Positions 18,212-51,249 of a DNA stretch of 64,000 nucleotides are shown piece by piece. The stretch's first letter is position 1. Each line of letters begins with the position of its first letter. This DNA is from Lobosporangium transversale. Its lineage: Eukaryota. The stretch covers positions 186,001 to 250,000 of the forward strand of contig NW_019029002.1 in the NCBI RefSeq assembly GCF_002105155.1, given 5' to 3'. A program made the translations under genes and the position numbers. The notes under the pieces are model-generated. The model had not been told where the DNA came from. It was given only the letters and a program-made list of their open reading frames with translations, and searched no databases.

Positions 18212-19600
18212 ATGAGCGCTGTTTCTGAGGAATATGTACGCCTTGTTGAGGCTCAGTGGAGGTTCATGCAAGAGGAGTGGCCAGCTATAAAGAAAGCCAA
18301 GTTTCATCGCACAGAGATGAAAGAGATATCTGACGTAACACACGTCAAGTCAATGGTGCTTGACCGTCTAGGATTCATCCCTACGTTCTTTTTTCTGACA
18401 CAAGTATTTGGAGTGCGTGACTATGGTAGCCCATATCGTAATGTCGAAAAGGGTCTTCTGCTCCTGTATGCACTAATCACAGGAGATTCATTGTCTACAA
18501 TGTCAAGGTTCATACCAAAGACGTCCTTTTACGACTTGCACAGGGAATTTTATCTTCGGGACCCTGTGAAACTACATGATGACATAACCTCAATGATGAG
18601 AGATATGTGCTCGAGTTTGAAGCTACGATTGCTACTTGCCAAGAACAACCCTGATCCATTCAAGCATGTGACATTGAATCTAGACGGACATGACACAAGA
18701 GTCAGCTACATCGGTGCTGACAAGCCAAGTCTCTACTCTTATAAACTCAAGAAGTCGGGTTTTCGTATTCAAGTGTGTTCAGACATGAACAATATCATAT
18801 TGTTTGCATCCAAGCCAGCTCCTTGTCGAGATTTCAATGATGGGACTATGCTTGTGAAGATGAACATTGCATCGCATATACACAAGCTGGACTGTGTTGC
18901 TCTTGATGGTGGCTACAGTGGGTTCGTTAGACAAATTGTCGAACCATCAAATGCACTGTCCTACGAAAATTTCTCTTATCCTGTGCGCAAGACTAGGGGG
19001 ATCGCCATGACAGACCAAGAGTTACATTACAATAAAGCGTTTGGTGGGTTTCGGTCAAGCATCGAAGGGTGCTTTGGAGACATGCAATCCACCTTCTCCA
19101 AGTTCACACACGACGCTCCCATCCGTTTCTCAGACGCAAAGACGTTTGATCTCCAATTCAAGCTTTGTTGCCTGCTTATGAATATCAAGAGAGTCGTGTC
19201 AATCCATAATATCCCCACTCAGACGCACCACACATTCTGGATGCAAGATGCGTTTGACTTTCCAGACAATAATGAGTATCAGGTTGCTTATGAGAAGCTC
19301 CCCAGCATCAAAGTCAAACTAAATCATGGTCGAAGTCTTTTAGAACTACAAGAAGCGTTCCTATCTGTAGCTAGTTCGCAGCCTAACATACTAGACACTG
19401 CAGATGAGACTATGGCAGAGACAGCGCAGGAGGGATACGAGGTTGCTAGGATTTTAGACCATCGCGGGGAAGGTGAGGACATGGAGTTTCTGGTTCAATG
19501 GGAAGGCTTCGATATCTCTGAGGCAACATGGGTGGCTCTACAGCATTCCAACTACAAACAGTGCATCCAAGACTATTGGAGAACCAAAATCAGCTTCTAG
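18212..19600 (+). CDS. PIF/Harbinger (IS5-like, DDE_Tnp_4-type) transposase with C-terminal chromodomain
   Basis: LNLDGHD (D1), VALDGGY (D2), YN..FGGFRSSIEGCFG (E); C-terminal YEVARILDHR...EFLVQWEGFDISEATW chromodomain; intronless 462 aa; clear homolog of 41558-42943. Confidence 0.88.
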   Translation: MSAVSEEYVRLVEAQWRFMQEEWPAIKKAKFHRTEMKEISDVTHVKSMVLDRLGFIPTFFFLTQVFGVRDYGSPYRNVEKGLLLLYALITGDSLSTMSRFIPKTSFYDLHREFYLRDPVKLHDDITSMMRDMCSSLKLRLLLAKNNPDPFKHVTLNLDGHDTRVSYIGADKPSLYSYKLKKSGFRIQVCSDMNNIILFASKPAPCRDFNDGTMLVKMNIASHIHKLDCVALDGGYSGFVRQIVEPSNALSYENFSYPVRKTRGIAMTDQELHYNKAFGGFRSSIEGCFGDMQSTFSKFTHDAPIRFSDAKTFDLQFKLCCLLMNIKRVVSIHNIPTQTHHTFWMQDAFDFPDNNEYQVAYEKLPSIKVKLNHGRSLLELQEAFLSVASSQPNILDTADETMAETAQEGYEVARILDHRGEGEDMEFLVQWEGFDISEATWVALQHSNYKQCIQDYWRTKISF

Positions 19601-19636
19601 AGACCGATTGCACGTACTTTCAAAAACCATCATGAC

Positions 19637-48192: not shown

Positions 48193-51100
48193 ATGTACAA
48201 ATTTGGAGCCACATTCTACTCGCAAAAGCAACAGGGCCTTAGGCCACAGGCAGCATCTTTCAAGAGAGCTGATGAGGCTCAGAACACATTTCTTGTTGCT
48301 CATCAATTCAAGCTCAACTCGGAGGGCAAACCGCTTTGGGCATTTGGTAGCTACAAAAATCTGCAGAGCTTCCTGGAATGCACAAAGTATGTACCAGCCA
48401 CTGAATGCTTCTTCTTTGAGCAAATCCGCGATGGGACATCTTGCTGGGAATACTACGACCTGGAATGGGATCCCTCAAAGACAGAGGACACTGAGGAGAC
48501 AATCTTCTCAGATTTTTTGCAGCAAAGGAATGCCTTCTGTCTAGAATATGAGGTCTTAGCTTCTGAGTGCCGCATCTTGAGTGCATCAAATGCTGAAAAA
48601 GGGTCAATGCATATCATCTTATCAGGGTCTGGATTCAAGTTCAGAGACAACACATGCCATATGAAAAACTTTATGGACGCCTTCCATTTGATGGTTAAAG
48701 AACATCCACTTTCAAAACACATTGATTGGATTGTCTACACAAAGAATCGAAACTTCAGATGCATCAATAGTGCTAAGCGCCATGATCCAACAAGGGTTCT
48801 CCGACCTGCAATTTGGCACAATGCCTCCTGCTCTGCACCTGAGAGTGAGTTTTTTGTCACCAATGTGAGTGCTGATGCCACAGATATTGTGCATTGTCAT
48901 CTTGCAGCAAGCAAAGGTGCTAGAAATAAAGTACCTCAAGTACAGGGGTCTGAGCAGGATCAAGACCAAGAGCAAAACGAAAAGTTGCCACCTAGTGTGA
49001 TTAAAGCAATAAATACCATGCTTGCAAATATGGATTGCTTGTCACAGTTCAAGATTGGCGAATCTCATAACAATCGTATGCACCTGAAGCGTATAAGATC
49101 AGGGCACTGTCAAATATGTAATAGGATCCACGACAATGACAATGCATATGTGACAATTGCAGATCAGGGGAAAGTGTACCTCCACTGCTATAGGGTGGAT
49201 GCAAATTCCAGGCGTGATGGACTTCAAATTGGCAAACTGGATTTTCCAAGCATGATCGCACTTCGAGTACATAGGGCACAGACCAATCAAGAAGAAACAA
49301 TCACTGCGAACAAACATTGCTCACTTCGCCATTTGGAGTATAAGAAAGTTATGAAGCTGCTGCAAAACCAGAAACAGAGTCTTGTGATCCGCAGTGAACC
49401 AGACACTGCTAAGACCTCTTTTGTTGAAAGTTTTATGGATAGGCACAAGAACTTAGCATACATTTTTGTGTCTCCTCGACAATCACTAGCACGCAATCTA
49501 GAGAAGCGCCTTGAGCTAAGGAGCTATCTTAGTTTCCCTGGGCCTGTCTCTGGGAAGCGCGTGATCATTCAAGCTGAGTCCTTATATAAGCTTGACCTTG
49601 AATACTATAGCATGGATGTGGTCCTGGTCTTGGATGAGGTCTGCTCTATTTTTGAACAGATGACAAGTGTGGGCACCATGAAAGGCCGCCATGGCGCAAA
49701 CAATCAAGTCCTAGAAGAACTTATGCGCAAGTCCAAGAGGGTAATTGCCTTGGATGCTGATGTGACAGACCGAGAGGCTGAAATCATCAAGTCTGTGAGG
49801 AGCGATGTTTTTGTCATTCACAACACTTTCAAGCCACAGCAAGGGCATCAAGTTGTGTGCTTCCAGCATAAAGAAGTCTTAGAGTCTCATGTTATTGATC
49901 TTGTAAAATCTGGTCATAAGGTCTGGATATCAACCACACACTCAGCTGAAGATGCCGAGACCCTGCATAAGACACTGCAGAAAATGGGCAGAAGGGGTGT
50001 CTGTATCACAAAGAACACATCTGATGCTGATAAGATTGGCATCTCACAAAATATCAACAAAATTGTGCTGGACCTTGACTATTTCATTCACACTCCGACC
50101 ATCACAGTTGGTATAGACTGCAATGTGAAGCATTTCAACTATGTCGTGGGGTTCTTTGAAGCACAAACTGGCGTCATTGTTGAAACATGTAGACAGATGT
50201 TGCGACGACCGCGAAATGTCAGCACTCAAAAATATCTCATCTATATCAAAAATGTAACTAGCAATCTACCCACCACTTTCAGAGAGATTGTTGAGTATAT
50301 GGAAAGCCAGGAAGTGCGACTGAATGGATGTGAATTAGACATAAGTGGATTTCCTTATATATCTCAAATGGGTCAGCCTCCATCCGTTGACTTGAAAGTG
50401 CTATATGCATTAATATACATGCAGACACTCATCAAGAAGCACTTGACAAAGAATGACTTTTATCAACGCTTTATTGACCAAATGGTCCAAGTTGGCTGCA
50501 GTGTACAGGAAGCTGACTCGCATCTGTGTAAAAACGATGAATATACTGTGGAACTAAACCAAAACAAGAAAGAGCTGCTACATATCAAGTACACAGGAAT
50601 TTCGAAAGCTAGGGTCCTTGATACTGAGGAGTTTTCTCGGTTAGATGTACAAAACAGTCGAACACAGGAGGAACAATATGCTGTGACGAAGTATAAGCTA
50701 ATGGAGACCTACAGTGTACAAGATGCATCTCTTTTGACTCCTGATTGGGTTGAGAAATATGACAAACCTCGAGAGAAGAAGATCTATAAGAATCTTGCTA
50801 TGTTGAAAGAGGACCCCACACTTCAAATCTTGCGACAAGAAGATAGATTGGGTCTCAAATGTGGCAAAGCTACAGTTGGGGTTCACACACTGGGAAATTC
50901 GAGATACCTCAGGTTTAAGTATGCAAAAGACATTCTTGACAGCTGTGGATTTGATTCGCCATTTGATGACAGAGAGATGTCAGCTGAGGAGCTCAAGAGA
51001 AAAATAGATCTTCGTTGGTCAGATTTGGTCAAGGACGGAAGTATGAGAGACATCTGCACTCAGCTGGGGATTAGATGCCCCTCACACAACAATTGGGACT

Positions 51101-51249
51101 TCAAAAATAAGAAAAGCTTTTTGAATAGTGTGTTGAACGAGATTTGGGGGATCCACATAGTCAGAACTGATCACAAGTCGCATCATTATTATATCAAGTA
51201 TATGACAGAGGTTGGTAAACACAAAGATGACTTTTTCATGACACAGTAG
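48193..51249 (+). CDS. AEP primase-polymerase + Zn finger + UL9-like SF2 helicase fusion (1018 aa, intronless)
   Basis: EYYDLEW, GSMHII, HIDWIVYTKNRNFRCINSAK; CQICNRIHDNDN...LHCYR; SEPDTAKTS (degenerate Walker A), LVLDEV, HTPTITVGID, RQMLRRPR. Confidence 0.88.
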   Translation: MYKFGATFYSQKQQGLRPQAASFKRADEAQNTFLVAHQFKLNSEGKPLWAFGSYKNLQSFLECTKYVPATECFFFEQIRDGTSCWEYYDLEWDPSKTEDTEETIFSDFLQQRNAFCLEYEVLASECRILSASNAEKGSMHIILSGSGFKFRDNTCHMKNFMDAFHLMVKEHPLSKHIDWIVYTKNRNFRCINSAKRHDPTRVLRPAIWHNASCSAPESEFFVTNVSADATDIVHCHLAASKGARNKVPQVQGSEQDQDQEQNEKLPPSVIKAINTMLANMDCLSQFKIGESHNNRMHLKRIRSGHCQICNRIHDNDNAYVTIADQGKVYLHCYRVDANSRRDGLQIGKLDFPSMIALRVHRAQTNQEETITANKHCSLRHLEYKKVMKLLQNQKQSLVIRSEPDTAKTSFVESFMDRHKNLAYIFVSPRQSLARNLEKRLELRSYLSFPGPVSGKRVIIQAESLYKLDLEYYSMDVVLVLDEVCSIFEQMTSVGTMKGRHGANNQVLEELMRKSKRVIALDADVTDREAEIIKSVRSDVFVIHNTFKPQQGHQVVCFQHKEVLESHVIDLVKSGHKVWISTTHSAEDAETLHKTLQKMGRRGVCITKNTSDADKIGISQNINKIVLDLDYFIHTPTITVGIDCNVKHFNYVVGFFEAQTGVIVETCRQMLRRPRNVSTQKYLIYIKNVTSNLPTTFREIVEYMESQEVRLNGCELDISGFPYISQMGQPPSVDLKVLYALIYMQTLIKKHLTKNDFYQRFIDQMVQVGCSVQEADSHLCKNDEYTVELNQNKKELLHIKYTGISKARVLDTEEFSRLDVQNSRTQEEQYAVTKYKLMETYSVQDASLLTPDWVEKYDKPREKKIYKNLAMLKEDPTLQILRQEDRLGLKCGKATVGVHTLGNSRYLRFKYAKDILDSCGFDSPFDDREMSAEELKRKIDLRWSDLVKDGSMRDICTQLGIRCPSHNNWDFKNKKSFLNSVLNEIWGIHIVRTDHKSHHYYIKYMTEVGKHKDDFFMTQ

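Follow-up and report, generated by a model that had tools for sequence, protein, structure and literature searches.

A 64-kb stretch of the Lobosporangium transversale genome (contig NW_019029002.1 of assembly GCF_002105155.1, positions 186,001 to 250,000 of the forward strand; hereafter the window) contains two elements, E1 and E2, of 10.5-11 kb (11.1 kb for E2, 40,949-52,044), and these are real and unusual, namely composite and probably self-replicating DNA transposons. The window is rich in introns, and the names given to homologs of the element proteins indicate the Mortierellaceae. The best explanation that we can offer, in which our confidence is about even, is a Harbinger-type transposon flanked by long direct repeats, which carries a PrimPol/UL9-type primase-helicase and four palindromic sites, and which likely replicates as a circle from these sites, is re-integrated by its transposase and swaps modules at the sites. 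An earlier note, made from the sequence alone, had described the genes of both elements as modules shuffled between hairpin sites like cassettes, and this interpretation was partly supported. The gene content, strands and order that it gave for E1 and E2 agree with the open reading frame (ORF) listing and with the Pfam scan. Both elements reach beyond the coordinates that it gave, to the long direct repeats (Table 1).

The long direct repeats (unit U1 in E1 and unit U2 in E2) are near-identical inside one element, whereas U1 and U2 have no similarity to each other by blastn. In E2, the trinucleotide TAA (target duplication) is present on both outer sides, and P0148, a homolog of the interrupted host gene, aligns to the right of E2 with residues 229-568 and to the left with residues 577-661, forming a single high-scoring segment pair over the empty site. 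Thus, E2 is one 11.1-kb insertion into a host gene. The spacing is alike in the two elements, with 1,557 bp (E1) and 1,545 bp (E2) from the left unit to the first hairpin site, A1, and 27 and 34 bp, respectively, from the last site, B2, to the right unit. E1 is decayed, with a frame change near 22,710 in the primase-helicase and a fragmented Crinkler body. An assembly artefact was ruled out; no letter differs between the window and the short-read contigs of runs X1, X2 and X4, which reach each site and continue into it. X1 and X2 are possibly source reads of the assembly, and X4 is not flagged as a source. No empty site was observed in run X12, which has C>T and G>A changes only and is bisulfite-like.

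The E1 and E2 proteins are just 45-53% identical. Both transposases contain DDE_Tnp_4 (PF13359 above the cut-off in E1 and E2) and a chromodomain, and the DGHD, DGGY and E motifs of the transposase family are conserved in 122 sequences. The primase-helicase, whose family range is as known from 21 proteins, contains the Herpes_ori_bp domain of Pfam. Its profile, built from 13 sequences, matches the herpesvirus origin-binding protein (E 3e-14) and, more weakly, poxvirus D5 primase and PrimPol. The structural model (pLDDT 75) matches UL9 of herpes simplex virus (HSV) 1 and human PrimPol, as well as nucleocytovirus primase-helicases over its length, and 67 plasmid records with CyRepA1 initiators match the helicase part. 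The C-terminal domain of the coiled-coil (CC) protein resembles viral DUF3627 (features 0.89; TM 0.80 to the named cluster in the structure comparison). In E1, the header exon of the Crinkler gene stops just past an HVLV-like motif, and site B1 lies in the next predicted GT-AG intron, the flanking exons of which are in phase; a hairpin between the first Crinkler exon and the Crinkler body had been seen in the earlier note. The pieces of the Crinkler body had no Pfam match, and the E2 cargo was assigned to no family in the Pfam and PHROGs scans. Run X5, which consists of spliced RNA, contains exact contigs of the E2 CC gene (43,338-44,308) and of the cargo gene (45,304-47,216), neither of which extends across a site; its cover of the primase-helicase and the transposase is next to nil, from which silence does not follow. 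X5 also contains a second CC transcript. Furthermore, a ~90% identical second copy of the cargo 5' region (44,675-45,790) was found in the same species, so that a related central module is present elsewhere in the genome. The Pfam scan of the element ORFs detected no tyrosine or serine recombinase domain, no Myb/SANT second ORF and no His-Me finger nuclease; the PHROGs scan of three E2 ORFs was likewise negative for the recombinases. Protelomerase, resolvase and HUH genes were absent among the scanned ORFs, and polymerase B, retroviral-type integrase and capsid genes among the element ORFs.

Each element has four hairpin sites (eight in total) in the orientation A A B B, and these separate the genes in the order first given. 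All eight sites have a common layout, namely an X flank, a GC-rich arm of 11-12 bp, an AT-rich imperfect loop, the inverted arm and a Y flank, and the X-hairpin-Y junction is asymmetric in every case. When E1 or E2 is drawn as a circle with one unit, it is composed of four modules: the unit with the transposase between X flanks, the cargo between Y flanks, and a pair of directional arms. When only perfect 10-bp arms were allowed, a scan returned 7 sites in the 64 kb, versus 0-2 in each of 10 block shuffles, and a one-mismatch scan of the window, which had no shuffle control, returned exactly the 8 sites and none besides. Patterns derived from the sites themselves matched 4 and 6 times, versus 0 in 100 shuffles, although this comparison is circular. 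The sites fold as imperfect hairpins and had 0 matches in an Rfam search. With regard to the flank motifs originally named, TAAA is present at seven of the eight sites, whereas GCGCAC occurs literally at only five; the proposed direction of the module genes, from the GCGCAC side to the TAAA side, holds in all four modules, which has a probability of 1/16 by chance. Site cores are 92-98% alike within E1 and 86-100% within E2 (loop reversal allowed), versus 60-73% between E1 and E2; the sites of one element evolve together and are homogenised. In E2, the loops of A1 and B2 are oriented one way and those of A2 and B1 the other way, and the flipped loops are backed by contigs of X1, X2 and X4 that run into or across the sites without differing letters. 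The stem of E2 site A2 carries a two-sided compensatory change, and B1 of organism B carries two changes that re-establish pairing. Outside these elements, matches to the site pattern were due to chance (8 with the loose and 0 with the strict pattern in viral contigs, and 1 in prokaryote genomes), and the metagenomes gave 0 matches.

The claim that the hairpins delimit exchangeable modules stands in part: it is supported by two breakpoints at sites in other organisms, by the varying neighbours of the transposase and by the homogenised, flipping sites, but the comparison of E1 with E2 does not show it. Record 28 of run X6 (5,236 bp) follows the primase-helicase module at 97% identity over 2.3 kb, between 50,359 and the Y edge of B1 in E2 at 48,047, and beyond 48,047 about 2.9 kb are unlike the window. 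In run X8, a 94% identical transposase has a depth of ~30, which drops to 1.7 in the next bin, so that its end lies between about 42,980 and 43,105, at A1. With breakpoints spread evenly over the intergenic gaps, both would fall at sites with a joint chance of about 0.02, a value that concerns two events and was calculated post hoc. As for the neighbours, five of the 146 proteins with a match come from gene models in which two module types are joined, always with a member of one transposase clade (73-95% identical). The upstream partner of this clade is CC in P0048 and P0051, the end of the primase-helicase in P0115, a part of the primase-helicase in P0065 and the Crinkler header in P0045. A search for CC proteins of greater length returned three, adding a Crinkler-CC (P0149) and a host gene-CC (P0148) combination. 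The gene model P0148 fuses a member of the host family interrupted by E2 to the CC gene, and hints at a further insertion in that family. In addition, a contig of X8 (depth 4.1) links the 3' flank of the primase-helicase (51,415) back to site B1 (48,047) with 9 letters between, and may represent a circularised module, a tandem arrangement or B2 in flipped form.

A transposase-motif scan of metagenomes yielded 22 loci, 20 of which have a transposase; L024 and L026 are the same element. The partner genes at the 20 transposase loci are Rep_trans-like in 10 and a D5-type helicase, a distant primase-helicase and CC in one each. Hairpin sites are present at only one of the 20, that with CC, and were seen only with the primase-helicase/CC type. 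L018 has the gene order of E2 and a degenerate site between CC and the transposase, in which the loop is part E1-like and part E2-like, and an E2-like transposase is paired with an E1-like arm. L024/L026 is a 3.46-kb circular assembly, which may also stem from collapsed integrated copies. It has one 418-bp unit, a Rep_trans-like gene and no hairpin sites; its transposase (68-72% identical) is close to that of E1, and the unit, 45 bp upstream of the transposase start, shares a 9-bp end motif with E1. In organism C (X8), the unit-transposase junction is kept, with a depth of ~60 for the unit and ~30 for the transposase, and in run X9 the unit and the transposase are far deeper than CC, cargo and host genes, although summed contig depth is a poor measure of copy number. 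These partner counts and depths suggest that the unit and the transposase form the core, and that a replication-type gene is a frequent partner. Scans of viral contigs for proteins and motifs returned nothing but one distant helicase, L001.

At L012, L013, L014, L017, L019, L022, L025 and L029, the transposase lies beside a protein of ~550 amino acids (aa) with Rep_trans-like features, and L017, L019 and L022 have terminal inverted repeats of 74-117 bp; such loci are possibly an undescribed transposon group of their own. The Rep_trans-like assignment of the partner gene is a lead only, with Atlas features of 0.92-0.93, a low-confidence model (pLDDT 58) and no relevant match in a profile search. 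At L016, L021, L027 and L030, the transposase is beside another unnamed, Cys/His-rich, acidic protein family, and L021 was assembled as a circle of about 6 kb. L031 (1-8962) combines the transposase with a D5/P4-type helicase, inverted paralogous genes and repeated short intergenic motifs, and its ends overlap by 55 bp (95%).

Horizontal transfer of the element is hinted at, since pieces of the element are more alike than host genes and the primase-helicase is near-identical across genera. In X8, a possibly mixed sample, the primase-helicase and transposase pieces are 94-98% identical versus 81-84% for NOL10 host pieces among the matches listed, and the E2 primase-helicase (48,193-51,249) has 96-100% identical counterparts in records assigned to two different genera. 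A wider proposal, which is tentative and on the whole rather unlikely, is that undescribed eukaryotic integrating plasmids combine a chromodomain DDE transposase with interchangeable initiators (UL9-type, D5-type and possibly Rep_trans-type), and that in Mortierellaceae the modules excise, circularise, invert and recombine at palindromic origins, the element crosses genera, and Crinkler header-body combinations arise via the intronic site.

The favoured explanation, that of a direct-repeat-flanked transposon with its own primase-helicase and palindromes, could operate as follows. Recombination between both repeat copies would free a circle of ~10 kb with one 0.5-kb unit, and the DDE transposase would integrate this circle, either with duplication of the unit in a cointegrate-like manner or by targeting a solo unit. 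By analogy with HSV oriS and with CyRepA1 on plasmids, the palindromes would be bound by the UL9-type protein or act as its origins. Since they are repeated and would readily be nicked or form cruciforms, such palindromes may become favoured crossover points in host recombination or template switching between co-resident elements. Whole modules would then be swapped, deleted or inverted, including the Crinkler body behind its header exon, and no dedicated recombinase would be required. A crossover at repeated palindromes always restores X-hairpin-Y, which would explain both the homogenisation and the loop flipping.

Several observations weigh against this explanation. The Walker A motif of the E2 helicase is atypical, E1 has no clean target duplication (outer flanks TAC and AAT), and the E1 arm and the end of the E1 terminal repeat have their first 7 bases in common, which points to the transposase. 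The direct breakpoints are two only, one of them bounded by 534-bp bins, with the sequence beyond not visible, and the neighbour data come from automatic gene models at the protein level. In P0002, the primase is 73-90% identical to one subfamily (60-column windows) and the helicase 75-93% identical to that of E1, with the switch in the linker; P0001 has the same mosaic, with the break within the ORF, and P0065, which joins a partial primase-helicase to a transposase, also has its breakpoint away from the sites. The repeat unit adjoins the 5' end of the transposase in E1 and the 3' end in E2, and since this arrangement is not producible by inversion between sites, the transposase inversion needs a non-site breakpoint. 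Likewise, a single module of E1 holds both CC and the primase-helicase, no site or site remnant having been found between them, so that their split in comparison with E2 needs a non-hairpin breakpoint. Record 24 of X6 keeps the link from the transposase through A1 to the CC side for 250 bp past the site. Because of the primase-helicase mosaics, the side switch of the unit, the shared E1 module and record 24, the sites look like favoured, but not exclusive, crossover points. Furthermore, no circle of an element or a module was seen; X1, X2 and X4 contain no module- or element-circle joint, but their contigs mostly break in hairpins or repeats and thus carry no information. In X2, the deepest same-species run, the depth is about single copy and that of the unit double, by a weak measure. 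Finally, the Rep_trans-like protein had no Foldseek match at E<=0.001 (weak rows: rolling-circle initiators), and VIA gave Z 5.8 at rank 50.

It is improbable, though well worth weighing, that the sites are passive repeated motifs, with the hairpins being boundaries in appearance only, and that ordinary recombination and deletion let the gene order drift in E1 and E2, which would be nested or composite transposons. The conversion of E1 to E2 requires non-site breakpoints, the primase-helicase mosaic is intragenic, and the central module of E2 has inverted ends of ~155 bp (77%), like a nested non-autonomous element, all of which would fit such drift. However, two breakpoints are sharp and lie at sites, the sites are homogenised and have compensatory changes and flipped loops, no target duplication was seen around the inner modules, and the Crinkler exons are in phase across B1. 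Slightly less probable still is the possibility that for the transposase the hairpin arms are internal ends, at which it cuts, inverts or moves modules, a site being a minimal transposon and two sites a composite unit. Besides the seven bases common to the E1 arm and the E1 end, the one-base-longer spacing common to the E2 arm and the E2 end is consistent with this, and loop flipping fits cuts at the arm edges. Against it, L024/L026 has no sites despite its close transposase and the same end motif, L018 combines an E2-like transposase with an E1-like arm, and the arms have no flanking TWA duplication, while conserved X and Y flanks lie outside them.

The two mechanisms named in the earlier note, a concatenated multi-segment replicon and integron-like cassettes, are both less probable than these. 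In the former, each module would be one segment of a multipartite linear replicon whose ends are covalently closed hairpins, and integrated concatemers would make up the elements. Flip and flop loop isomers are known from the ends of poxviruses, African swine fever virus and parvoviruses, and their occurrence here (in E2 only) agrees with such segments, as do the nucleocytovirus-type genes and the X8 joint from 51,415 to 48,047. We nevertheless consider this quite unlikely, because all eight junctions are X-hairpin-Y and never have the symmetric forms expected of replicated hairpin ends, the scanned ORFs include no protelomerase, resolvase or HUH gene, and E2 is a single insertion with a 3-bp target duplication. 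An integron-like system, in which a site-specific recombinase captures cassettes at attC-like hairpins, would account for imperfect palindromes that bound single-gene modules and for the gene direction that follows the site in all four. Yet it is very unlikely, given that the element ORFs contain no tyrosine or serine recombinase domain, the array is inverted with the sites as inverted pairs (A A B B), CC and cargo are on separate RNA contigs, and the loop, which would set the direction, flips.

To our knowledge, few eukaryotic DNA transposons bring along a replication initiator of their own, and the notion of cassette-like modules with fixed boundary sites comes essentially from bacteria. Should the sites serve as both origins and crossover points, E1 and E2 would represent a self-replicating, cargo-trading fungal element, which would also be a vehicle for horizontal transfer. 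In that case, a testable mechanism would be at hand for a long-noted puzzle, namely that the Crinkler body swaps exactly behind the HVLV motif.

Among known systems, CyRepA1, HSV UL9 and the nucleocytovirus origin-binding helicases share the UL9-type SF2 helicase, which in the nucleocytovirus matches is joined to an AEP primase as it is here, and the layout of oriS resembles that of the E1 and E2 sites, palindromes with an AT-rich centre. Unlike in those systems, no capsid or polymerase B gene is present, the gene lies within a transposon, and binding to the sites is putative. An endogenous nucleocytovirus was rejected as a candidate; major capsid protein and polymerase B were not found, and just the primase-helicase and the DUF3627-like gene are of that type. 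Polintons, casposons and Teratorn also join an integrase to viral-type replication genes, but with other integrase and replicase families, and we know of no internal hairpin-bounded modules in them. The hallmarks of Polinton/Maverick elements are a protein-primed polymerase B, a retroviral-type integrase and capsid genes, none of which is among the element ORFs, and this candidate was rejected as well. The bacterial IS26 encodes its own transposase, unlike E1 and E2, whose units are non-coding and which carry the transposase internally. Its translocatable units are similar to them in that direct copies of a small unit flank the passenger and a one-copy circle is presumed (available part of PMC9587614).

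According to the same part of that paper (Kojima and Bao 2022, PMC9587614), KolobokP elements have long terminal direct repeats (450 or 660 bp) with their own short inverted ends and 3-5 bp duplications, a circular one-repeat intermediate was proposed, and they are animal elements of 4-4.7 kb with a Kolobok transposase and a His-Me nuclease. The long terminal direct repeats with their own inverted ends (here 516, 550 and 418 bp) are thus shared, whereas the present elements, from a fungus, contain a DDE_Tnp_4-chromodomain transposase, a primase-helicase, a DUF3627-like gene, cargo and four palindromes. Because the transposase and the partner genes differ, they are not members of KolobokP. In comparison with PIF/Harbinger (PHIS) elements as treated in the available part of PMC4482050, the DDE_Tnp_4 transposase, the short inverted ends starting with G and the TAA duplication of E2 are alike, but no Myb/SANT partner was found, and the chromodomain fusion, long direct repeats, replication gene and internal sites are different. 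For Crinklers, the HVLV motif has been described as a recombination hot spot at the header/body junction, with Helitrons as the proposed agent (available part of PMC5289972); unlike the shuffling reviewed there, a repeated palindromic site lies here in the predicted intron at this junction. PIF-Harbinger is listed in Mortierella in the available part of PMC5751038, which contains no such structure, and that of PMC12730594 does not mention Mortierella. Full-text literature searches yielded no description of this element in the text accessible to them; Repbase and most subscription papers are outside their scope, so that an existing entry is possible.

Table 1. Features of E1, E2 and the interrupted host gene (positions in the window)
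Feature	Position	Strand	Remarks
E1 left long direct repeat (unit U1)	17530..18079	+	550 bp; own 12-bp terminal inverted repeat; 13 differences/550 vs right copy
E1 transposase	18212..19600	+	DDE_Tnp_4 and C-terminal chromodomain, 462 aa
E1 site A1	19637..19711	+	X flank, arm, AT-rich loop, arm, Y flank
E1 primase-helicase	19771..22984	-	AEP primase, Zn finger, UL9-type SF2 helicase; frame change near 22,710
E1 CC gene	23058..23624	-	Coiled-coil and DUF3627-like; family inferred via E2 homolog
E1 site A2	23970..24041	+	Hairpin scan
E1 Crinkler header exon	24424..24829	+	Pfam PF20147, E 1.9e-21; GT donor at 24,830
E1 site B1	24951..25022	-	Within predicted intron 24,830-25,254
E1 Crinkler body	25255..27244	+	Several pieces; predicted acceptors in phase with header exon
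E1 site B2	27350..27427	-	Hairpin scan
E1 right long direct repeat	27455..28003	+	Outer flanks TAC/AAT, without clean target duplication
E2 left target duplication TAA	40946..40948	+	Flank comparison
E2 left long direct repeat (unit U2)	40949..41464	+	516 bp; own terminal inverted repeat; 1 difference/516 vs right copy
E2 transposase	41558..42943	-	461 aa, 50% identical to E1 transposase
E2 site A1	43010..43076	+	Loop flipped; run X8 transposase cover ends here
E2 CC gene	43387..44170	-	DUF3627-like C-terminal domain; transcribed; 5'-end frame change; longest ORF 43,387-44,058
E2 site A2	44507..44600	+	Two-sided compensatory stem change
E2 cargo gene	45304..47216	+	Transcribed, spliced; GT-AG intron near 45,573-45,669; no known family
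E2 site B1	48018..48116	-	Run X6 primase-helicase homolog loses match at Y edge (48,047)
E2 primase-helicase	48193..51249	+	1018 aa, open ORF
E2 site B2	51424..51494	-	Loop flipped
E2 right long direct repeat	51529..52044	+	Pair of left unit U2
E2 right target duplication TAA	52045..52047	+	Flank comparison
Host gene split by E2	40680..53110 (53,110-52,055 and 40,931-40,680)	-	Homolog P0148 alignment

Elsewhere in the window, a weak match to a Tc3-type helix-turn-helix (E 0.01) at 28,584-28,805, to the right of E1, is probably a transposon remnant. At 56,693-58,963 and 60,544-62,748 there are tandem paralogous host genes, which we take to resemble PAS-domain genes, and the second of these contains a 77-bp inverted repeat (61,495-61,712), the copies of which are 91% complementary and 64 bp apart.

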